Made by a program: the position numbers and the translations under genes. From an uncultured Gammaproteobacteria bacterium (GTDB taxonomy: Bacteria > Patescibacteriota > Microgenomatia > UBA8517), in NCBI GenBank assembly GCA_964494885.1, contig CAZBTH010000003.1, positions 5,983 through 69,982 of the forward strand: DNA of 64,000 nucleotides. The letters run 5' to 3'. The stretch's first letter is position 1, and every line of letters starts with the position of its first letter. Below, piece by piece: positions 854-46,087 of the stretch. The notes beneath the pieces were generated by a model. The model worked only from the letters and a program-made list of their open reading frames with translations, did not search any database and was not told the DNA's origin.

Positions 854-2632
854 ATGTTTAAAATCTTTAAACGATTCTACTGGTTCATTTGGAAGCACAA
901 GTGGTGGTTCATCCTAGCGCAGCTGGCCACGACTATTGCTATCGTGCTTGAACTCATTACCCCCTATTTCTTTAAACTTTTTGTGGAAACTCTTCAAAGG
1001 AATGACTTGAATCATCTCTATACATTAATTCTGATCTTCATTGGAGTTTTGTTCGGCAGTCTTGTTTTTGACAATCTAAAGTTTTTTCTTGGCGACATTG
1101 TCTCGGTAGACACTGCCATAGACATAAGAACAACTATATTTAAATATATTCAGGAATTGGACTTCTCGTTTCATGCCGGAAAAAGCACTGGTTCTTTGAT
1201 TAGCGCTTTCAAGCGCGGTGACAACGCCTTTTGGGGACTTTACGAGCGCCTAAACCAAAGGATGTGGCAAATTTTTATCGGTTTTTTTGTAATGGGTTAC
1301 TTTTTTCTAAAAATCGATCCACGATTCATACTTATTTTCTTTATTTCTTTCCTCCTAACACTTGTGGCAACAAAATATCTGGCCGGTATGAACATCCGTA
1401 CGCGTGAAGAGTTTAACGAATACGAAGATAAAATATCCGGCATTATCACTGATAATTTGATCAATTACGAAACGGTAAAACTTTTTGCCAAGGAAAACTG
1501 GGAAATTGAACGGCTAAGGTCTACATTTCGTGATTGGAAAAAATTTCTTTGGAGGCATTTTTATACTTATAGGTATATTGACATGAGTGTTGGAAGTTTA
1601 ATCAACCTCTCCATATTCATTGTTTTGGCCTTTTCCCTGAACTTAATTAAGGCCGGTCAAATAGGCATCGGAGATTTTATCCTTGTTGTATCTTACGTAA
1701 ATTTGTTCTTTCCCAAGCTTTTTGATCTGATTTATGGTTTGCGCGAAATCTCAACAAGTTATGCTGACATCAAAAAATACTTTGATTTGCTGGATTACGA
1801 AATAGATGTAAAAGACCCAATAAGCCCTGTAAGCAAAGATCACGTCAACGGCATAATTGAATTTAAAGATGTCTCTTTTACCTACGGCGGGCGAAGCAAA
1901 AATGCGATTAATGGTGTTGATTTGGAGATTAAAAAAGGACAATCTGTGGCTTTGGTTGGTAGAAGCGGCAGTGGTAAAACTACGTTGGCAAAACTTTTAA
2001 TGAGATTCTACGATATCGATTCCGGAGAAATAACAATCGATGGAGTAAATATTAAAGATTTTACAAAAAGTACTCTAAGGGGATTTGTCGGAGTTGTTCC
2101 CCAAGAGCCCATTCTTTTCAATAATACTATCGCCTACAACATTGGCTACGGCTTCGGACAGGGTCGTCGGACAGGGTCGGACCCTGTCAAACAACCCGCC
2201 CGGAAAGGGTCCGACCTTTCAGAAATTAGAGCAGCTTCAAAACTTGCCAATATTGATGACTTTATTGAAAGCCTAAAGAAAAAATACGATACAGAGGTCG
2301 GCGAACGCGGGGTTAAACTTTCCGGAGGCCAAAAGCAGCGCTTGGCCATAGCGCGGATGATATTAAGCGACCCCGATATTGTTGTATTTGATGAGGCTAC
2401 AAGCCATCTTGATAGCGAGAGCGAAAAACTTATTCAGGATGCGTTTTGGAAAGCCAGAAAGGGAAAAACTACCATCATCATCGCCCACCGTTTGTCTACT
2501 ATCATGAGGGCGGACAAAATTGTGGTTATGGAACATGGGCATATTAAAGAAACAGGAACTCACGAGGGATTGGTGAAGAAAAAAGACAGTTTGTATTCCC
2601 ACTTCTGGAATTTACAAATTAAATTGGACTGA
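854..2632 (+). CDS. ABC transporter permease/ATP-binding protein (MsbA-like exporter) with an in-frame palindromic insertion
   Basis: N-terminal TM domain. Walker A GRSGSGKTT, signature LSGGQKQR, Walker B IVVFDEAT, H-loop IIIAHRL. The track start at 827 is TTG; the ATG at 854 (MFKIFKRF) is more likely. Confidence 0.9.
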   Translation: MFKIFKRFYWFIWKHKWWFILAQLATTIAIVLELITPYFFKLFVETLQRNDLNHLYTLILIFIGVLFGSLVFDNLKFFLGDIVSVDTAIDIRTTIFKYIQELDFSFHAGKSTGSLISAFKRGDNAFWGLYERLNQRMWQIFIGFFVMGYFFLKIDPRFILIFFISFLLTLVATKYLAGMNIRTREEFNEYEDKISGIITDNLINYETVKLFAKENWEIERLRSTFRDWKKFLWRHFYTYRYIDMSVGSLINLSIFIVLAFSLNLIKAGQIGIGDFILVVSYVNLFFPKLFDLIYGLREISTSYADIKKYFDLLDYEIDVKDPISPVSKDHVNGIIEFKDVSFTYGGRSKNAINGVDLEIKKGQSVALVGRSGSGKTTLAKLLMRFYDIDSGEITIDGVNIKDFTKSTLRGFVGVVPQEPILFNNTIAYNIGYGFGQGRRTGSDPVKQPARKGSDLSEIRAASKLANIDDFIESLKKKYDTEVGERGVKLSGGQKQRLAIARMILSDPDIVVFDEATSHLDSESEKLIQDAFWKARKGKTTIIIAHRLSTIMRADKIVVMEHGHIKETGTHEGLVKKKDSLYSHFWNLQIKLD

Positions 2633-3050: not shown

Positions 3051-3109
3051 TAAATAATTCTATCATTTATTTGTAATTTGCAGATTTGACTATTTGTTTA
3101 TTGAAGTAC

Positions 3110-3325
3110 TTACTCTTCTTTACTTTGCATACCCAATAACCAGAGGACAGCTTCTTTCTTATAACGGCGATCCCCTCTTGAATTTATTCTGATTGCAGGG
3201 AGTTTGCCCCGTTTACCCCATCTTTTTATAGTTAAAGGGGAGACGCGGAGAACATCTGCAACTTCACGAACTGTTAGTAAATCCGGTAGATTCTCAAGTT
3301 TTACTTTCTTTTTTCCTTCTTCCAT
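3110..3325 (-). CDS. Helix-turn-helix DNA-binding protein, excisionase/MerR-like family
   Basis: LTVREVADVLRVSPLTIKRWGKRGKLPAIRI is a typical excisionase-family HTH. Confidence 0.65.
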   Translation of the reverse strand: MEEGKKKVKLENLPDLLTVREVADVLRVSPLTIKRWGKRGKLPAIRINSRGDRRYKKEAVLWLLGMQSKEE

Positions 3326-3398
3326 ATTTTTTGTGTTGCTTACCGAAAAGGTAGTTAGTATGTTGTATATGGTATATAGATTCTGAAATTTGCTTTCT

Positions 3399-3445
3399 CT
3401 ATATACTATATACTATATACGATATACGATATACTTTGTACCCAT
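3399..3445. repeat. ATATAC(T/G) heptamer tandem array (intergenic repeat family)
   Basis: ctATATACtATATACtATATACgATATACgATATACt. The same motif family recurs at 13205-13250, 13528-13551, 19011-19090 and 19485-19611. Confidence 0.8.
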
Positions 3446-3529
3446 CCCCTGCCTATCAACGATCTATCTTAGTCAGACAATATCAAAGCGAAACAGCTCC
3501 GTCAAGGACCAATTTACAATAATTACATA

Positions 3530-3558
3530 TTGCAAATTAAATTTCGTGTTGTTATATT
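3530..3558 (+). promoter_or_regulatory. Sigma70-like promoter for the dCMP deaminase gene
   Basis: TTGCAA-N17-TATATT, 15 nt upstream of the ATG at 3573. Confidence 0.4.
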
Positions 3559-3572
3559 GGCTGACAAATTAA

Positions 3573-4067: not shown

Positions 4068-5599
4068 AAATCGTATATTTTAGAATATTTTTCTTCCAGA
4101 TATTGAAGGTTAACGTTTGGGTCAACCCCGTACATAATTCTTTCAGAATTTTTACGGGGCGAGACTTCCATTTTATTTTTCTTCAAAAGCTCCTCCAGTG
4201 TGTACGTACTCCCATACTTATGTATCTGTTCCTTGAGCCAATGTTCTATATTTTTTATTTTTAAACTGTAATTTTGATCTTTGATTTTTGATTTTTGAAT
4301 TTGATGTTCCCATTGCGCTCCTAAAAACGTTCCAAGACTGTAAGTCGGAAAATATCCCACCGTTCCCCCACTCCAGTGGATATCCTGGAGTACCCCTTCA
4401 GAATCGTTTTTGGGAGTAATTCCCAAGTATTCCTTCATTTTTGCATTCCAAATCTCCGGTAAATCTTTGACTTTCATTTTTCCTTCGATTAGTCCTTCCT
4501 CGATTTCAAATCTAAGCATAATATGGAAGTGGTAAGTAACTTCGTCGGCCTCTACCCGAAGAAGGCTTGGGCGGACTTTGTTAAAGTAAGAAAAATAGCT
4601 GGTTACTGGTAGCTGTTTGCTGATTACTGAATCAAAATCTTTTTTAAAATAATTGATAAACTCAGAGCTTCGGCCGACAAAGTTTTCCCAAAAACGGGAT
4701 TGAGATTCATGAATTGCCAAACTTGACCCCCCACCGATCGGGGTCATTTCCAGCTCCGGTGAAGACTGTAGGTCATAAAGTGCGTGGCCAAACTCGTGAA
4801 CTACCGCCAAAAGACTTCTTCCAAAATCGCGCTCATGATACCAAGTAGTGATCCTTGTGTCCTGATTTGAAAAGGACGTGGTAAATGGATGCGCGGAGGT
4901 ATCAAGCCGGAAATTTTGGCCAAAATCTTTCCACAGGTACCTTAATATTTTGTCATTTAATCCTGACATCTTATGCCTGTCATATTTTGCATTCTCGAGC
5001 GGGTGGGTTTTAAAATAATTTGGAGATGTTACGATACTCTTTAATATATTTTGAAGTGGTTGTTTGATTTTAACGAAAAAATATTCGACCGACTTAGAAG
5101 TTAACCCTTCTTCAAATTGATCCAGAAGCGCGTCATAGGGAGAATCTTTATAGCCCAAATATTCAGCCGCTTTTTTGTTCATGTCAAAAATTTTTGACAG
5201 AGATTTTTCAAATATTTTGAAATCGTTCTTTTCCTTGGCTTCTCTCCAAATAACAGTAGCCGTATTGGTTAGCCTTTCAAAATCTTCAATAAAGTCGCTT
5301 GGTAATTTCTCGTAATATTTTAGAGATCTCAAAAGAATCCGGACCACCCCCCTTTCCTGATCGGTCATTTGCTTAATGTCCTCTGCTTTATGCAACAAAC
5401 TTACAAAGTCTTGATCAAGAAACATCTTTTGCCTGATAACCGAGAGTCTGCCAAGTGCCTCACCGCGCGCAGAAGCTCCCTTTGGAGGCATGTAAGTTTC
5501 TAGATCCCAGTGGGCGATTGCCGAGGTGTAGCTTAGTGCCCACAAATCTTTGTATTTATCCAAAATTGAGAGGATCGTTTTGTTTTTGAAAGGTTTCAT
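4064..5599 (-). CDS. Carboxypeptidase Taq-like metallopeptidase, family M32
   Basis: HEFGHALY zinc motif, HESQSRFWEN, DIHWSGG, GYFPTYSLG. Confidence 0.85.
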   Translation of the reverse strand: MKPFKNKTILSILDKYKDLWALSYTSAIAHWDLETYMPPKGASARGEALGRLSVIRQKMFLDQDFVSLLHKAEDIKQMTDQERGVVRILLRSLKYYEKLPSDFIEDFERLTNTATVIWREAKEKNDFKIFEKSLSKIFDMNKKAAEYLGYKDSPYDALLDQFEEGLTSKSVEYFFVKIKQPLQNILKSIVTSPNYFKTHPLENAKYDRHKMSGLNDKILRYLWKDFGQNFRLDTSAHPFTTSFSNQDTRITTWYHERDFGRSLLAVVHEFGHALYDLQSSPELEMTPIGGGSSLAIHESQSRFWENFVGRSSEFINYFKKDFDSVISKQLPVTSYFSYFNKVRPSLLRVEADEVTYHFHIMLRFEIEEGLIEGKMKVKDLPEIWNAKMKEYLGITPKNDSEGVLQDIHWSGGTVGYFPTYSLGTFLGAQWEHQIQKSKIKDQNYSLKIKNIEHWLKEQIHKYGSTYTLEELLKKNKMEVSPRKNSERIMYGVDPNVNLQYLEEKYSKIYDF

Positions 5600-13129: not shown

Positions 13130-13551
13130 TAACTTTTAACTTTTAGCTCATAGCCTTTAACTTTTTATCCATTAGCCTCATATTTTCCGCAGGTAACTAC
13201 AACCTATATTGTCATTTGTATATTGTATATAGTATGTAGTATATAGGAAACGATAGAACTATACTAAGGGATAGTAGTACAAATTACGCATCAACTACAA
13301 ACACACAATATTGAACAAGTTTTTACTTCTTTTTTCAAATACGTATTCTAAAACTTATCCTCAATCGATCCTCAACTCGATTGACATTTTTTGGCTTATA
13401 CTATGAGTATTTATTTTAGAAAGATATTACTTACCAACCCTACTATTTTATTTAAATCAATAAGTGCAAGTCTTAAAGAAATACTAACCCTATAAGTTTA
13501 TCTTGTTCTAGTTTTTCCCCATACCCCATATTCTATATACGATATACTAGT

Positions 13552-26195: not shown

Positions 26196-28025
26196 TCACA
26201 TTCGTTCGGGCGCTTGTATCCCAAGAAGTTGAAGGCCATTCTTAAGTATCTGCCCTGTTGCAGCTGTAAGCGTCACTCTGAATGCACTTATACTCTTCCA
26301 CTCTTCTGCTTTTCTACTCTCATCCTCCAAAATTCTAAATTTATTGTAAAAAGTATTATATTTCGAAGCCAAATCATATAAATAGTTACACAAAAGATTG
26401 GGTGAGTAAGTTTTGGCTGCAGTCGCTATTACCTCAGTAAATCGGGATAAAGCTCTTAGTAACGACAATTCTTCTTCAGTTTCCATTTTCCATTTGCCAT
26501 TTATCATTTCATTTGTAGATTTGCTTATTTGCTTATTTGTAGATTTAAGAAGTACGCTGTTGCATCGAGCAACTGTATATTGAAGATATGGGCCCGAGTT
26601 GCCTTCCAAAGACAGGGAACTTTCAAAATCGAACGCAATGTCCCCGCCTATCCCTTGCTTTAAAAATGCATATTTAACGGCTCCAAGGGCAACCTGTTCT
26701 GCAATTTCATCTTCCATATTGTGTGCATCAAGAAGTTTTTTCTTAGCTTCGTCCAAAACCCATTCCCCCCTAATAATTTTTCCGGTTCTTGAACTCATCT
26801 TTCCTTCGGGAAGACGGACCATCCCGTGCCCTATGTGTGTTGTAGCCTCGGCAAGATCCTTTTTGTACATAGATAGGGCTTTAAGGACAACGTCAAAATA
26901 GGCATCAATCTCGTTACCGGTCACGATAATCGATTTGTCATATGGAAAATCTTTGTATTTGGCAACAGCATTGCCGAAATCCTTGGCTTCGTATGTGGGC
27001 AAATTAAGGGCATTTATAAAAACCCTATTATGCAAACCGTATTTTTCTCCAGGAAAAATTACAGCGCCACGCTCACCCTTCTCAAAAATTCCTTTGGCCA
27101 AACCGTCCAAAACCATTCCATAGCCAAATTCTCCGGTTCTGCTTTCCGGATAATAGCCGTCAAACTTCATCCCAACCCTTTTATAAATTGATTCGAAATA
27201 TTCCAAACTCCATGCCCTACCAATTTCATAAATATTTTTGATTTCAGAATAAGAATACTTGCCGTCTTTTTTGATATATTGATCGTAGTTCACCTGTGGA
27301 GATTCGTTGAATTCCGGCAAAACCACTTCCTGTGCAGCCTTGAAAATTAAAAAGTTAAGCTCTTTCATATCTTCTACTGCTTTCGGATCTTCTTCAAAAG
27401 CAGTTGCACCTTTTGCGTATGCTTGTCCAAAATACTCGATTCTTTCTTTTAGAGGCTTTTCGGTAAGGTCTTTAATATCAACTTTGTCCTCTGAAAACTT
27501 AAACATTAAACCCCAAATCGCCTTGGCAGCATGCATGCCAACATCGCCAAAATAATCGGCTCGCCATACGTCTCCGCCAATCGCGCTTTGCAAGCGGCTA
27601 ATCGATTCACCAACCGTATTTGTATATAAGTGGCCTATATGAAACTCTTTGAATGGGTTGGGATCGGTATATTCAACAACTACTTTTTTACCCTTAAGAA
27701 AACCGCTCTTTCCATAACTTTCCCCTTCTTTCTGTATCTTCCCAAGCTCGTTGACAAGGGTCCCCCCTGTCAACCAAAAATTTATAAAACCCGGGCCGGC
27801 GACTTCAATTTTTTCAATAAATTTGGATAATTCGGGAGACTGGGATAGTTTGATTTTGATTTCTTCAGCCAATTCCCTTGGATTTTTGCCCTCGCTTTTT
27901 GCCATGATTAGCGCAATATTGCACGAGTAGTCGCCGAATGTTTCGTTTTCGGGAAATTCCAAGCTGATTTCCTTTGCTTTGGTTACAGCTTCTAAAGCCG
28001 TTAGTATTTTAGTTCTAGTTTCCAT
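26196..28025 (-). CDS. argS: Arginine--tRNA ligase
   Basis: HIGH-class motif region and KMSSRTG (the KMSKS-like motif). C-terminus ...LLGIQAPERM. The likely start is METRTKIL at 28025. Confidence 0.9.
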   Translation of the reverse strand: METRTKILTALEAVTKAKEISLEFPENETFGDYSCNIALIMAKSEGKNPRELAEEIKIKLSQSPELSKFIEKIEVAGPGFINFWLTGGTLVNELGKIQKEGESYGKSGFLKGKKVVVEYTDPNPFKEFHIGHLYTNTVGESISRLQSAIGGDVWRADYFGDVGMHAAKAIWGLMFKFSEDKVDIKDLTEKPLKERIEYFGQAYAKGATAFEEDPKAVEDMKELNFLIFKAAQEVVLPEFNESPQVNYDQYIKKDGKYSYSEIKNIYEIGRAWSLEYFESIYKRVGMKFDGYYPESRTGEFGYGMVLDGLAKGIFEKGERGAVIFPGEKYGLHNRVFINALNLPTYEAKDFGNAVAKYKDFPYDKSIIVTGNEIDAYFDVVLKALSMYKKDLAEATTHIGHGMVRLPEGKMSSRTGKIIRGEWVLDEAKKKLLDAHNMEDEIAEQVALGAVKYAFLKQGIGGDIAFDFESSLSLEGNSGPYLQYTVARCNSVLLKSTNKQISKSTNEMINGKWKMETEEELSLLRALSRFTEVIATAAKTYSPNLLCNYLYDLASKYNTFYNKFRILEDESRKAEEWKSISAFRVTLTAATGQILKNGLQLLGIQAPERM

Positions 28026-28059
28026 ATAAATTTTATAACTTTTATAATAGTTATAATTG

Positions 28060-28611
28060 TTATACACTGCTTTTTTTATACTCCATCCTCTTTTTAAACA
28101 AGTTCTCTCTAAAACCACCCTCTTTAATAAATTTCTCCTCGGTCCAACGAAGTTTTTGATCCAAAAGTTGGTTTGTTTGGTTTATTAAACAAAGCATGGC
28201 GTTGGCTGCAGCCTCGGGGTTCCCAATATAACTTTTATAAAGGTTATAATTTTTATAATTGTTATACGCAAGCCGTCGGACAGCTTGCGCCTCAGAAGAG
28301 CCCACTTCCCAAACCTTTAACCCTTTTTGTCTTAAGTAATCTTGATAGTCATTTAACAGTTCTTCTAAACTTCCTCTGGCAACACCTAAAAGTTTAATTC
28401 TGCCTTCCAGGCTTTTTTGCAAATATCCTTCAGCTATATTCTGTTTGCCGCTTCTTGCCGCCTGCTCCATTTGGTCTTTGGTGCGAGATTTGTAATTGAT
28501 ATAGAGTTTGCAAAATTCAACAGTAAAATCGTAAACAATTTCGCTTTGAATATAGAAAGGTAACGTTTTGTAACCCTTATTTTCCATTTTTACTATTTTA
28601 TTATAACCCAT
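28060..28611 (-). CDS. Four-helix-bundle protein (TIGR02436 family, long form; paralog of 16114)
   Basis: TVEFCKLYINYKSRTKDQMEQAARSGKQNIAEG aligns with the 16114 ORF. Confidence 0.6.
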   Translation of the reverse strand: MGYNKIVKMENKGYKTLPFYIQSEIVYDFTVEFCKLYINYKSRTKDQMEQAARSGKQNIAEGYLQKSLEGRIKLLGVARGSLEELLNDYQDYLRQKGLKVWEVGSSEAQAVRRLAYNNYKNYNLYKSYIGNPEAAANAMLCLINQTNQLLDQKLRWTEEKFIKEGGFRENLFKKRMEYKKSSV

Positions 28612-29708
28612 TAATCAGGCTTGGCATATTCGCTAATTACTTTCTCAAATATTTTTGCACACTTTTCGACCTTATCAGAATAACAATATTCATTCGCCTT
28701 ATGCATCTGTGTTATCTCCCCCGGACCGAATATTACTGTCGGAATTCCAATTTGCGTAAAAAACGGCATGTCAGTAGACCCCGGGAATGCCACCAGTTTT
28801 GCCTTTGAAACGTTTTTGACAATTTTGGCGATATCTTCGCCGCTTTCCGTAAACCCAAAGCTAACCGGCGGATAAAGGTACTCAACTTTACCAATTCTGC
28901 CTACAGATTTTTTTACAGCCTCAAAAGCAGTTTCATGTATTTCCGGAATGGTTCTAATATCGAATGTTGCGGAGCACGCATCCGGAAATTTATTTGGGGC
29001 TATTTCAGTTCCAGCCATGATAGAGGTGGCAAGGCTAATTGTAGGAAATCCTAAAATCTTATTCTTGTATTTCTTTTTCCACTCGGCACCCAAGTTATCT
29101 ATTCTTGATATCAATTTAAACATTCTTAGAACTGCATGATCAGATTTCTTAATTGGCTTGCTCCCATGCCCCGAGTCCCCCGTCGTAATCACTTTTATAA
29201 ACAAATTTCCTTTATGCGCGACACCGATTAACCCTAATCCTGTTGGTTCACAGACAATTGCTGATACTTTTTTATATACTTTTAGATGCTTTGTTGCCAA
29301 CCACTCAACTGTATCATTTGTCCCGTGACCATCCACTTCTTCCCCCACTGTAAACGTGAGAATTACATCACACTCCGGTTTTTTGACAGAAAATTCTTTT
29401 GCCAAAAGCATAAGTACCGCGACCGAAGCTTTATTATCGCTTGATCCAAGACCAAATATCTTGCCGTCTTTTCCGATTCCACCAAAAGGATCGTGTTGCC
29501 ATAGATCAATATCTCCCGGGCTTACCGTATCTACATGAGAATTAAATATCAGGCATTTTTTACTGTTTGACCCTTTTACGGCCGCAACCACATTACCTTT
29601 AATATTTATGGTTTTAAGTCCACAAGAGGTCAAGAAATCATAAATATATCCGATGATCTCCTTTTCCTCACCTGTCACAGAATTTATTTGTATTAACTTT
29701 TTTAACAT
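28611..29708 (-). CDS. M20-family metallopeptidase (ArgE/DapE-like deacylase)
   Basis: NSHVDTVSPG and GSSDNKAS metal-binding motifs. Size fits the family. Confidence 0.7.
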   Translation of the reverse strand: MLKKLIQINSVTGEEKEIIGYIYDFLTSCGLKTINIKGNVVAAVKGSNSKKCLIFNSHVDTVSPGDIDLWQHDPFGGIGKDGKIFGLGSSDNKASVAVLMLLAKEFSVKKPECDVILTFTVGEEVDGHGTNDTVEWLATKHLKVYKKVSAIVCEPTGLGLIGVAHKGNLFIKVITTGDSGHGSKPIKKSDHAVLRMFKLISRIDNLGAEWKKKYKNKILGFPTISLATSIMAGTEIAPNKFPDACSATFDIRTIPEIHETAFEAVKKSVGRIGKVEYLYPPVSFGFTESGEDIAKIVKNVSKAKLVAFPGSTDMPFFTQIGIPTVIFGPGEITQMHKANEYCYSDKVEKCAKIFEKVISEYAKPD

Positions 29709-30181
29709 TATTTGATGATAACCGGTGTGTCACAGCACACCTTTCCGGCTTTTTTAGCCTCTATAAACATCGGGCAGTTGACGCACTCACCCCAAACCTC
29801 CTTTGGCAACAAATCGGGATCTGTTAATATTTCTACTCCATTGTCCAAAAATATCTTTAAACTTTTTTCGTTACATAAAGCAAAAAGTTTAGCTTCTGGA
29901 AAAATCAATTTGGCCGCCGAAATTAGATCTTTGACCACTTTGTGTCCCAATCCGTGTTCTCTTTTGACCGGATCCACAATCACCGCCCCAAGTTCTTTCC
30001 AGCCATCTGGCCAATCAAATGTTATGGCTCCAAATCCGGCCACTTCCCCATCGCCATTTAAGACAACGATACCCCTTCCCTCTTCCAGAAATTTAAAAAT
30101 TTCTTCGGGACTTTTGGGTAGCATTGACCCCGACTCTTTAGTCCAATCTGATATTTTTATTGACACGTTTTCTCTTTCCAT
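29708..30181 (-). CDS. GNAT-family N-acetyltransferase with a C-terminal Cys cluster
   Basis: Acetyl-CoA-binding region GLGHKVVKDL. C-terminal CVNCP...CC. Confidence 0.6.
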   Translation of the reverse strand: MERENVSIKISDWTKESGSMLPKSPEEIFKFLEEGRGIVVLNGDGEVAGFGAITFDWPDGWKELGAVIVDPVKREHGLGHKVVKDLISAAKLIFPEAKLFALCNEKSLKIFLDNGVEILTDPDLLPKEVWGECVNCPMFIEAKKAGKVCCDTPVIIK

Positions 30182-30182
30182 G

Positions 30183-30219
30183 TGCGCCCGGCGGGAATCG
30201 AACCCACAACCACGGGCGC
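30183..30219 (-). ncRNA. tRNA-like minihelix (acceptor stem plus T-arm only) abutting the GNAT start codon
   Basis: On the minus strand: GCGCCCG-TGGTT-GTGGG-TTCGATT-CCCGC-CGGGCGC-A, followed immediately by CATGG, the GNAT start. There is no D-arm or anticodon arm. Confidence 0.5.
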
Positions 30220-30267: not shown

Positions 30268-30397
30268 ACTTATTTTGTTATGCAAAAGGTATATCTTGCT
30301 CCAGTTACACAAACAACTTTGTTGTCATTTGTGTTTTTATTACAACCTACAAGTAATAGCGACACCAAGGTCAAACAGGTAAGCAACTTCCTGATTT

Positions 30398-30637
30398 TCA
30401 TCGTCCACCTCGACTGTCAAAAGGGCTTGATTTTGGTGCATCCCCGGGCGGCTCCGGCGGATCATCGTCTACGAGAAGCGACCCAACGAACAGCAATATC
30501 GCTCCGATAGAAAATCCGTCCATCATGCCGGTTAATATTGGATGTGGCGGCCAGACACCCTCTTTGAACGCAAAAATTGCAATGAGCAGACTAAACCCAA
30601 GCAATATTGTGCCCAAATAACGAAATAACTTTTTCAT
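30398..30637 (-). CDS. Small two-TM membrane protein (79 aa)
   Basis: AAGGAG SD 6 nt upstream of the ATG at 30637. The track N-terminal extension (MHIKNVNIKN) is encoded by a 16-nt tandem repeat and is probably 5' UTR. Confidence 0.55.
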   Translation of the reverse strand: MKKLFRYLGTILLGFSLLIAIFAFKEGVWPPHPILTGMMDGFSIGAILLFVGSLLVDDDPPEPPGDAPKSSPFDSRGGR

Positions 30638-30689
30638 CGTATACTCCTTTTTTACGTTTTTTATGTTTACGTTTTTTATGTGCAACTTT

Positions 30690-30900
30690 GGGCCACAAAC
30701 CCTCCTTCGCGCAAGGCTTCGGAAGGGTCGCTAACGCAAAAAGCCCCGTTAGCGTCCGAGAAATAAATCTCAGAAACTAAAGGGGCTCTTCACTTACGGC
30801 TAGAGGGCGGCTTGCCACTCCGTAGCCTTGGCGAAGGGTGGTACCACCCTTGTTCAATTATCCTTAAAACCATCCAACTCCGCACGAGGCTTCGTTGGAC
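30690..30900 (-). other. GC-rich ORF-free structured region (candidate leader, riboswitch or ncRNA) upstream of the small membrane gene
   Basis: Several perfect hairpins: CGCTAACG...GTTAGCG, AAGGGTGG-ta-CCACCCTT, CCGCG-ttgta-CGCGG. Local GC about 52% against about 38% background. Confidence 0.4.
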
Positions 30901-30923
30901 AAAGAAAAACCGCGTTGTACGCG
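30901..30923 (-). terminator. Rho-independent terminator on the minus strand
   Basis: Minus strand reads CCGCG-tacaa-CGCGG then TTTTTCTT. Confidence 0.6.
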
Positions 30924-31125
30924 GTTAATTCAAACTTAAAGGACAATCCTTATTATTTGAGTTCTCCGTTTGACGACAAACTCTAGCTTGCTTTTACGGT
31001 AAGCTCCCGTCAGACATTTTGGTCTGCTGCTCGCAAGGCGCGAACTTGCTATGACGCATTTATTAGACTGGAGGTAATTGTATAATATTTGGACAAATTG
31101 TCAACCATCAATTGCCACCTATAGG

Positions 31126-31154
31126 ATTGACTATTAGGCAAAAATGTCCTATAA
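31126..31154 (+). promoter_or_regulatory. Consensus sigma70 promoter for the lipoprotein gene
   Basis: TTGACT-N17-TATAAT. Confidence 0.7.
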
Positions 31155-31224
31155 TTAGAACTTCCCGTTAGTGCACGTTTAAAAAAACCAACCCTATCCC
31201 GCAATTTCAAGTTTTGGAGGATCT

Positions 31225-31638
31225 ATGAAGAAAAATAAGTTGTTTCAGGCGATTGCCTCGATCTTGATATTGATTTTACTGGTCGCCTGCTCCGTGGAGC
31301 AATCCGAGACAGCACGCGCACCAACTGCCATTGCTGTTCCAGAACCCATATATTATGGGGACTTAACTTTAGACATAACCTGGGTACAGGAAAACAATGC
31401 GATCCACATCGTAGCGCACATGTTTCCACCGGCTGGATTCACGGCAAAACCGCAAGCACTCACAGTTTTGAACAGTGAACTTTTGCCGATTTTTTCGGCA
31501 ACTCTCAGCAACATAGGTTTCGACGAAACGAAATACATCACCCCCCAGACTCTGGCAGTCTATTTGGGTGAGAACGGTCCAATTTTTATTGAAGGGTATG
31601 GGGTTTACCATTACAATTTTACGGTAGCATACCCGTAA
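31225..31638 (+). CDS. Lipoprotein, hypothetical
   Basis: Signal peptide with lipobox LLVAC (MKKNKLFQAIASILILILLVACS). Confidence 0.65.
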   Translation: MKKNKLFQAIASILILILLVACSVEQSETARAPTAIAVPEPIYYGDLTLDITWVQENNAIHIVAHMFPPAGFTAKPQALTVLNSELLPIFSATLSNIGFDETKYITPQTLAVYLGENGPIFIEGYGVYHYNFTVAYP

Positions 31639-38577: not shown

Positions 38578-38631
38578 TATTTAACCATATTCTACCGCTG
38601 CAGTCGATAGTTTATGGATACAAAAAAGGGT

Positions 38632-38835
38632 CTAACAACCAAATCCTACCTCAAAGGTTGTGGGCGTTCGCTCCTTTGAACAACCTTGGTTTACAGATAG
38701 CGACTTATCAACACAGGCCTCCGGCGATCCGTTTCCCTGAGCCTCAGTTGCTATTTTTGCTTCTCCGGCCTCACGAATTGCCGATGTTGATTGCTCTTTC
38801 TGACCCTCTCCAGTCATAACTGCAATAATAGGCAT
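38632..38835 (-). CDS. Small hypothetical protein (67 aa)
   Basis: Strong SD (AAGGGGGTG, 7 nt upstream). A hairpin plus U-run lies just upstream at 38866-38898. Confidence 0.4.
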   Translation of the reverse strand: MPIIAVMTGEGQKEQSTSAIREAGEAKIATEAQGNGSPEACVDKSLSVNQGCSKERTPTTFEVGFGC

Positions 38836-38973
38836 ATATTTTCACCCCCTTTCTACAAACAAAAAACCTCCCGTGTTAGAGAGGTTTTAAAAAAATATTT
38901 ATCACTCTCTAACCACAAGAAAGCTCTCCGAGAAGGAGGGCTTTAATGCTTAAGAGAACTGTAAATATTTTCA

Positions 38974-45547: not shown

Positions 45548-46087
45548 GATATAATTAATACTAAGCTTAATACATACGCATTTGCAAGCATCTAAAAAGT
45601 TAAACCTCACTCCCCTGCCTCCGGTAAATATAATAGCCAAAAGTTCGGTCTAAAAGGAGGGTAATTTTTCCTAGCACTCATTTTCTCCATCTGCTAATCA
45701 CAGCCGTATCGCCGAAGTATAAAAATATAATATAAAATTATTTAAGCAGAGGCTGCAATCGAACATTTTTATAGAGACGTTCTTCTAAAACGATTACATT
45801 CTCCGCAAAAAAATTTGGCAGTAAGTAATAAACGCAGTTTTCCGCAAACTAAACTCCATGCCTGTTTTTTTGGAAGAAAACAGGCATTTATAAACATTAT
45901 AAACGTTATAAAATTTATAAATATTATATTTTCGTGCGGAAAAGACGTGCGTTAATTATACTACAAGTACTGTGAAAGTAAATTCTAATATTTAAAAGGG
46001 ATGATATGGTAAATACCCTTGACAGGCTTGAATAATATTTTAATAATAGTCTAATTAGTATAATTTGTATAATCTAGCCTTAATAAC

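Follow-up and report, generated by a model that had tools for sequence, protein, structure and literature searches.

T-boxes are a textbook case of RNA reading another RNA, and the block without open reading frames (ORFs) at 30690-31095 of the window, by which we mean the whole 64,000-nucleotide (nt) stretch of contig CAZBTH010000003.1 analysed here, very probably holds one. We read the block as a single minus-strand 5' leader, extending from a promoter at 31104-31077 to the end of a terminator at 30738, that would serve an arginine operon as a tRNA-Arg T-box riboswitch. The structural elements of this leader, their conservation and covariation, its mutually exclusive pairings and the association of a CGC triplet with arginine genes are all observed. 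A preliminary description of the region had suggested a riboswitch-like leader, and the T-box anatomy found on the minus strand bears this out; from that anatomy the ligand is predicted to be a tRNA rather than a small molecule.

Results

A structured leader is conserved in 14 distinct loci

Within the window, ORFs of at least 100 amino acids (aa) leave no longer gap than 30511-31224, which contains the block. Only ORFs of 30-57 aa overlap the block, in keeping with its original description as ORF-free. That description also put its G+C at about 50%; the block is indeed GC-enriched, at a measured 0.48 as compared to 0.403 window-wide. Comparison with shuffled sequences supported the strong structure ascribed to it: minus 31072-30895 gave z = -3.2, minus 30905-30640 gave -4.9 and plus 30686-31095 gave -4.6, and in each case no shuffle folded as well. 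On the minus strand, a near-consensus sigma-70 promoter-like site (11/12 matches; Table 1) predicts a leader transcript that would start at ~31070, and TTGACA/TATAAT-like boxes also precede the homologous leaders in relatives. A second promoter-like site on the plus strand (31127-31155, TTGACT-17-TATAAT, 11/12) faces a 137-aa ORF, so that the intergenic region would hold divergent promoters ~25 nt apart.

At gathering thresholds, Rfam recognised only two tRNAs in the whole window and nothing in 30690-31095. In E-value mode, the sole meaningful match in the region was to the T-box family RF00230 (16.1 bits, minus 31063->30832), carried by AACAAGGGUGGUACC. The preliminary description had staked its non-coding RNA on a cmscan match or on conservation in relatives: the former is missing at gathering thresholds, whereas sequence and structure are conserved in 13 other distinct loci, as expected of a functional non-coding RNA on the minus strand. 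We rejected tmRNA, RNase P, signal recognition particle (SRP) and 6S RNAs as candidate classes, ARAGORN having found no tmRNA and Rfam no match at gathering thresholds; signatures of the first three had already been missed by eye.

Relatives were assembled by two routes. The window's neighbouring sigma factor, used as a query, gave the distant relatives L022, L023 and L025. L022 (Ca. Woesebacteria CP066686.1, 63% identical) keeps the gene order of the window; in both L022 and L023 a homologous leader separates the sigma-factor gene from a minus-strand operon with argS among its genes, and L025 carries one upstream of a GNAT gene. No such leader was present in L024, which encodes a sigma-factor homologue of 41% identity, and the only locus obtained when genome contigs were scanned with the sigma factor was an unrelated planctomycete one. 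Scanning with a degenerate pattern taken from the conserved IIA/B region, which contains neither the putative specifier nor the T-box sequence, revealed 11 metagenome loci, each with the full architecture. The resulting family has 14 distinct members (the window and 13 others) in two subgroups, and its leaders always immediately precede their downstream genes and share their strand.

Three covariance models built from subgroup 1 captured the decoding domain (R1), the S2 and T1 helices (R2) and the terminator (R3). R1 recovered 14/14 members (E 1e-25 to 2e-7), as did R2 (E 2e-23 to 2e-5), and R3 recovered 13/14, with L028 below threshold; R1 found a single copy of the leader in the window. We put a covariance-model match at 27936-28009 (15 bits, E 0.23) down to chance. 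Joint alignment of both subgroups with MAFFT and RNAalifold misaligned Stems I and II and returned almost no structure, and was replaced by helices parsed by hand together with covariance-model alignments. Alignments fitted to models favour structure, and the margin over controls was large: once pairing partners were displaced by 1-3 columns, the paired fraction of cells fell to 25-62%. The hand-parsed tables show the same helices as the model-fitted alignments.

The 5' half presents a conserved CGC triplet

The 5' part of the leader folds into a decoding domain composed of an ultrashort Stem I, Stem II and a IIA/B pseudoknot, in which 92.4% of cells are paired, 16/28 pairs have changed on both sides, and 0/500 shuffles reach these values (shuffle counts here and below cover three measures: cells paired, double changes and covariation). 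Across members, Stem I is a hairpin of 5-7 base pairs (bp) with a 4-9 nt loop; its helix, formed in the window by 31049-31045 with 31037-31033, is 95.6% paired, with 5/5 pairs changed on both sides. The window's loop, UUCGCGC, is shaped like an anticodon loop (Y-U-NNN-R-N) and contains the arginine codon CGC at 31042-31040, a triplet found in the Stem I loop of 14/14 members. Given this position and conservation, we propose CGC as the specifier. Rfam aligns the base of the window's Stem I to its K-turn columns.

Stem II is 100% paired, with 4/5 pairs changed on both sides; it is longer in subgroup 2, where it carries an S-turn-like motif (GAGAAA...AUUA) confined to that subgroup. Stem IIA spans 31010-30996, and the IIB pseudoknot covaries through a series of compensating forms: AGCUU/AAGCU, AGCCU/GGGCU, AGCA/UGCU, AGG/CCU, GUC/GAC and GCC/GGC.

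A long-range helix spans the upstream terminator-like hairpin

The middle segment begins with an extra hairpin, P4 (helix 5; 96% paired, two pairs compensatory between the subgroups). It continues with hairpin S1, which occurs as UCAAA/UUUGA, UCGAA/UUCGA, CUUAAA/UUUAAG, CUGAAA/UUUCAG and CUUGAAUA/UAUUCAAG; per-sequence shuffle support for S1 is weak, and one register across the subgroups, as formal counting would require, was unattainable. S1 on one side and the 3' strand of S2 on the other flank T1, a hairpin followed by a U-rich tract (scored U5-8) in 14/14 members, with a GC stem of 5-8 bp whose sequence is wholly different from member to member. The T1 helix is 97% paired, with 4/6 pairs changed on both sides, in a model-fitted alignment in which the window's own T1 is misaligned; the window's U-tract is UUUUUCUUU, of which the first two U's are also counted in the stem. 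The preliminary description had placed a minus-strand terminator at 30901-30923; the terminator-like hairpin and U-run are real, and their coordinates are 30926-30901.

The S2 helix pairs a strand within the S1 loop with one downstream of T1 (92.5% paired; 10/12 pairs changed on both sides), and S2 and T1 together have 94.1% of cells paired and 14/18 pairs changed on both sides, with 0/500 shuffles reaching these values. Judged by its position, S2 is the putative equivalent of Stem III. It is flanked by a purine-rich 5' segment (AAUAAG or AACAAG) and an A-rich 3' linker, in an unusual topology. Because S2 spans T1, the two halves form one RNA; and because its 3' strand is made after T1, S2 cannot prevent termination at T1. 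A search by eye for a T1 antiterminator, comparing the T1 arms with upstream elements such as Stem I, revealed nothing consistent across members. With S2 unable to block it and no consistent alternative pairing, we interpret T1 as a site of programmed pausing or leaky termination that may buy time for tRNA capture, a reading about as likely as not to be right.

The position of S2 bears directly on an alternative close to that of the preliminary description, which had split the region into a candidate small RNA (sRNA; 31095-30924) and a separate riboswitch. Under this alternative, an independent sRNA of ~165 nt (~31070 to 30901), with its own promoter and with T1 as its terminator, would be followed by a distinct cis-regulatory leader. 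T1 does have the textbook form of an intrinsic terminator (GC stem of 5-8 bp plus U-run, 14/14), the distance from promoter to T1 suits an sRNA, and a terminated 5' fragment may accumulate as a by-product. Yet the strongly covarying S2 (30948-30939/30865-30856) joins sequence on both sides of T1, and the decoding elements of a T-box lie in the upstream half and its discriminator in the downstream half. Taken alone, neither half corresponds to a known functional unit. No promoter-like site was seen between T1 and the T-box sequence, and the two halves always co-occur among members. We therefore consider two separate units unlikely.

The 3' half can pair as an antiterminator or as terminator T2

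The T-box sequence, which occurs once in the window, reads GGGUGGUAC in 13/14 members and GAGUGGUAC in L028, and a UGGUAC(C/A) bulge is found in 14/14, its UGGU being complementary to the tRNA 3' end ACCA. Helices A1 and A2 are 90% paired and nearly invariant, as expected for a T-box sequence; in L028, GGG/CCC of A1 is replaced by GAG/CUC. The long A2 insertion of the window is common to L023 and L034. In all members T2 consists of a long, GC-rich hairpin with at least 5 consecutive U's behind it (96.2% paired; 18/21 pairs changed on both sides; 0/500 shuffles). Its 5' arm contains the 3' strands of both A1 and A2, making antiterminator and terminator mutually exclusive. As read from these pairings, the regulatory terminator is the second, downstream one (T2, 30788-30738). 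T2, which in the window lies 100 nt upstream of the next start codon, does not fit a translational class II (ileS-type) T-box, whose output is Shine-Dalgarno sequestration without an intrinsic terminator.

Alternative pairings are also available to the T-box sequence itself. The first bases of the A2 region, CACCCUU, are able to pair with AAGGGUG instead, hiding the bulge, and in the window copy a perfect palindrome, GGGUGGUACCACCC, lets the T-box sequence fold locally (AAGGGUG-GUAC-CACCCUU), which hides UGG. This local hairpin may reinforce the OFF state.

At the argH-linked loci L026 (~640-660), L028 (~5715-5690) and L030 (~4310-4330), inspection by eye found AAAGGGG or GAAGGGG in the 3' arm of T2, 8-10 nt before AUG. 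The resemblance to a Shine-Dalgarno sequence suggests that the same hairpin could both terminate transcription and sequester the ribosome-binding site at these loci.

Downstream genes point to arginine

All nameable genes downstream of the leaders are argS, argH/argG or an ArgA-like/ArgE-like pair. They include argininosuccinate lyase ArgH (TIGR00838, 353.7 bits), an argininosuccinate synthase ArgG fragment, ArgS (TIGR00456, 439.8 and 347.3 bits), GNAT and an ArgE/DapE deacylase. Arginine T-boxes in TBDB favour specifiers ending in C or A, C most strongly (PMC7778990). UGGU predicts A as the discriminator base at position 73 (A73), which is present in the window's tRNA-Arg(CCU), not itself a reader of CGC. 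The preliminary description had the leader serving a small two-transmembrane protein gene, which proved to be an orphan ORF limited to one species; the relevant cargo, judged from the conserved genes, is the arginine operon (ArgA-like GNAT, ArgE-like deacylase, ArgS).

R3 also found a second T-box in L033 (13622->13401 minus; RF00230 56.8 bits, E 8.7e-12, under the gathering score of 93). Its Stem I is truncated, retains an S-turn and shows the sequence GAA-CCC-G, with CCC (Pro) as the likely specifier; the leader precedes proB-like and proA genes (proA NF001221, 501 bits), so that the specifier reading predicts the cargo here too. This proline T-box has no T1-like hairpin with a U-run. These data suggest that platform-less transcriptional T-boxes are general in this lineage, as far as can be read from the sequences.

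Several observations weigh against a tRNA-Arg T-box. RF00230 gives every member 16-45 bits, far under its gathering score of 93: 16.1 in the window and 28-44.8 in relatives (L026 44.8, E 8.8e-7; L028 35.3; L030 29.6; L035 28). In all members Stem I has neither the specifier internal loop with its S-turn nor the distal platform, and in subgroup 2 CGC falls in a nominal tetraloop that would need opening to be read. The K-turn is canonical in some members only: by eye, L029 and L033 match the consensus form (UGC-GUU-GA-CCGGA...GA-GCA), and the window's is degenerate, with a bulged strand of AUA, not GA. The first downstream gene products in L029, L033 and L035 (3/13 related loci) match no NCBIfam family. 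A match of anticodon and A73 in the cognate tRNA-Arg (ACG or GCG) is presumed, the A73 observed being that of tRNA-Arg(CCU). Finally, T1 meets every sequence criterion for a terminator, its leakiness is assumed, and an efficient T1 would make the discriminator pointless.

Some of the same features would suit a T-box-derived leader that no longer senses tRNA and acts, for example, as a constitutive attenuator or a protein-binding leader: little is left of Stems I and II, the match to Rfam scores very low, and the window's T-box sequence can fold into the hairpin that hides UGG. Across divergent members, however, UGGUAC, the 7-nt bulge geometry, CGC and the pseudoknot stay constant while the helices vary by compensatory substitutions. 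Invariant tRNA-contact motifs set among freely compensating helices are the signature of continued selection for tRNA contacts, and the link between CGC and arginine genes holds wherever the downstream genes can be named; loss of sensing is accordingly very improbable, more so than two separate units. Chance structure or a mobile or repeat element without a regulatory role, to which the lack of Rfam matches at gathering thresholds and the orphan flanking ORFs might have pointed, is refuted by the single copy in the window, synteny in relatives, extensive covariation and invariable same-strand placement upstream of genes.

A proposed mechanism

We infer that tRNA binds, which isoacceptor is read and what T1 does, and with anticodon reading and antitermination modelled on the established mechanism of the T-box family (PMC7583486) we arrive at the following model for the tRNA-Arg T-box. 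Transcription would start at ~31070 on the minus strand, and the decoding domain would fold first, with the ultrashort Stem I presenting CGC alongside a mini Stem II with its A-rich loop and the IIA/B pseudoknot. This domain would capture the anticodon of tRNA-Arg (GCG or ICG). With no tRNA-elbow platform on Stem I, the leader should bind tRNA slowly, and polymerase would pause, or partly terminate, at T1, giving time for this binding. Past T1, the long-range S2 would form and position the discriminator. If the tRNA is uncharged, its ACCA would pair with UGGU, stabilising A1/A2, preventing T2 and allowing polymerase to read on into the ArgA-like/ArgE-like/ArgS operon; with a charged tRNA, or with none, CCCUU would join T2 and transcription would end at 30738.

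Surrounding genes and other features

Between the leader and the operon lie two small orphan ORFs (Table 1). The 79-aa and 137-aa proteins on either side of the leader have no homologue outside the window's species among the 5.8 billion proteins searched, which makes them useless for comparative work, and the contigs that carry these small ORFs are all 99.9-100% identical across the region. In L034 the slot between leader and GNAT gene is occupied instead by an unrelated 74-aa zinc-ribbon ORF; the slot looks, from these two arrangements, like a place where variable small genes accumulate.

T2 and the orphan ORF are separated by about 100 nt of sequence that is structured and specific to the species. 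This segment includes a perfect tandem repeat, TTTACGTTTTTTATG x 2.1 (30651-30681), just upstream of the orphan ORF's ribosome-binding site and absent from relatives; the preliminary description had noted this repeat as 16 nt x 2 at 30651-30682, and its presence stands with a unit of 15 nt.

Immediately 5' of the GNAT start codon, within the operon, is a tRNA-like minihelix (minus 30182-30219), GCGCCCG-UGGUU-GUGGG-UUCGAUU-CCCGC-CGGGCGC-A. Its parts are an acceptor stem of 7 bp, a T-arm whose T-loop matches the consensus, and a discriminator A; D arm and anticodon arm are both absent. We take its acceptor stem to resemble that of tRNA-Arg(ACG). L034 keeps the minihelix at 1224-1261 (+) with the structure-preserving changes C->U (giving G-U) and G->A (giving U-A), and likewise keeps the 11-bp hairpin that precedes it (~30259-30225, minus). 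Rfam matched the minihelix below threshold only (mascRNA, 20.6 bits; tmRNA T-arm); the tmRNA match seen in E-value mode is a 17-nt T-arm fragment and nothing more. The minihelix could be an RNase P/Z processing signal or the remnant of a tRNA gene.

Elsewhere in the window, four further gaps of 400-520 nt without an ORF of at least 100 aa (3051-3572, 13130-13551, 38578-38973 and 45641-46087) contained no Rfam match at gathering thresholds.

Table 1. Predicted features of the leader and its surroundings, in window coordinates
Feature	Position	Strand	Details
Promoter-like site	31077..31104	minus	-35 TTGACA 31104-31099, 16-nt spacer, -10 TACAAT 31082-31077
Stem I, ultrashort	31033..31061	minus	AAAUGCG lead, K-turn-like base, 5-bp GCAAG/CUUGC, 7-nt loop UUCGCGC
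Stem II	31011..31026	minus	5-bp hairpin CAGAC/GUCUG, conserved loop CAAAAU
Stem IIA + IIB pseudoknot	30985..31010	minus	IIA ACGG/CCGU; AGCUU 31005-31001 pairs with AAGCU 30989-30985
Extra hairpin P4	30959..30983	minus	GAGUUU/GAACUC enclosing UCGU-CAA-ACGG
Hairpin S1	30930..30960	minus	UCAAAU/GUUUGA; loop carries S2 5' strand 30948-30939
T1 hairpin	30901..30926	minus	AACCGCGU-ACA-ACGCGGUU 30926->30908, then UUUCUUU to 30901
Lineage-specific extra hairpin	30872..30900	minus	GUCCAAC...GUUGGAU, between T1 and S2 3' strand; common only with L033
S2 3' strand	30856..30865	minus	AAGGAUAAUU pairs with 30948-30939 GAUUGUCCUU; then A-rich linker, helix A1
T-box sequence	30840..30851	minus	A1 5' strand AAGGG 30851-30847, 7-nt bulge UGGUACC 30846-30840
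Helix A2 region	30786..30839	minus	long insertion CUUCGC...GUGAAG enclosing GGCUA...UAGCC hairpin
T2 intrinsic terminator	30738..30788	minus	GAGCCCCUUUAGUUUCUGAGA / UUCUCGGACGCUAACGGGGCUU, then U-run; 5' arm holds A1 3' strand CCCUU 30784-30780
Two small orphan ORFs between leader and operon	30270..30637	minus	
79-aa two-transmembrane protein	30637-30398	minus	orphan
43-aa protein with lipobox-like LVGC	30401-30270	minus	orphan
Arginine operon, putatively leader-regulated	26196..30181	minus	GNAT, deacylase, 23S-rRNA-IVS protein, arginyl-tRNA synthetase
GNAT, weakly related to amino-acid N-acetyltransferase (ArgA-like)	30181-29708	minus	
ArgE/DapE-family deacylase (ArgE-like)	29708-28611	minus	
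23S-rRNA-IVS protein	28611-28060	minus	
Arginyl-tRNA synthetase ArgS	28067-26196	minus	TIGR00456, 347.3 bits vs cut-off 262
137-aa protein, signal- or lipoprotein-like N-terminus	31225-31638	plus	

Discussion

Discriminator, switch and specifier logic place the leader in the functional class of T-boxes, in which it stands as a structural variant. The Arg family shares much of its anatomy with canonical transcriptional T-boxes (RF00230; Bacillus subtilis tyrS, glyQS): the 7-nt UGGNACC bulge, the alternation of A1/A2 with an intrinsic terminator, a specifier that matches the pathway, a K-turn-type Stem I base in some members, a IIA/B pseudoknot followed by the F-box-like CCGUAAAA, and purine-rich 5' and A-rich 3' flanks around the Stem III equivalent. 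By contrast, its Stem I has no specifier internal loop, S-turn, AG bulge or distal loop, and hence no tRNA-elbow platform; Stem II in the window's subgroup has only 5 bp and a CAAAAU loop; P4 is an addition with no canonical counterpart; and a long-range helix stands in for Stem III, enclosing the strand of another hairpin as well as T1 with its U-run.

An ultrashort Stem I in which Stem II and IIA/B compensate for the lost platform is established in the ileS T-boxes of actinobacteria (Mycobacterium, Nocardia; PMC7583486). Like them, the Arg family has a truncated Stem I with the specifier near or at its tip and no elbow platform, keeps Stem II and the IIA/B pseudoknot, and has insertions in Stem III and A2. 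The ileS T-boxes are translational and sequester the Shine-Dalgarno sequence, whereas the Arg family ends in a clear intrinsic terminator, is predicted to be specific for Arg rather than Ile, comes from candidate-phyla-radiation hosts (Microgenomates/Woesebacteria) instead of Actinobacteria, and carries the conserved upstream terminator-like hairpin T1. From its sequence, the family looks as though it combines the ultrashort Stem I of translational T-boxes with the terminator output of transcriptional ones.

In the glyQS T-box, polymerase pausing is documented both within Stem III and after it, with programmed pause sites at positions 138, 178 and 207, and a role in pausing has been suggested for Stem III (PMC13001445, PMC6197855). 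In both systems an element in or next to Stem III would delay polymerase before the discriminator and widen the window for tRNA capture. T1 is set apart from the glyQS pauses in being a full terminator-like GC hairpin with U5-8, present in every member, and is a candidate pause.

We tentatively raise the possibility, doubtful as it is, that the family is a distinct class: transcriptional yet platform-less, with a U-U-CGC-R-A mimic of an anticodon stem-loop that would engage the tRNA in a loop-loop kiss, and with a T1 pause inside a pseudoknotted Stem III that would offset slow tRNA capture and provide two consecutive kinetic checkpoints in one leader. In the window's lineage the operon mRNA would add a minihelix ending in discriminator A, which tRNA-processing enzymes could excise and which could even act back on the discriminator.

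Among the papers that could be searched, none dealt with T-boxes in these lineages. As standard Rfam annotation misses the family, riboswitch censuses undercount T-boxes in these genomes. According to a 2020 review, transcriptional T-boxes generally require the Stem I platform, and only translational (mostly actinobacterial) ones dispense with it (PMC7583486). The Arg family challenges the generalisation that transcriptional T-boxes need this platform for fast tRNA capture, and the pause- or terminator-like T1 element could explain how the family copes without one. Together, these comparisons predict T-box regulation of arginine genes in bacteria of the candidate phyla radiation.

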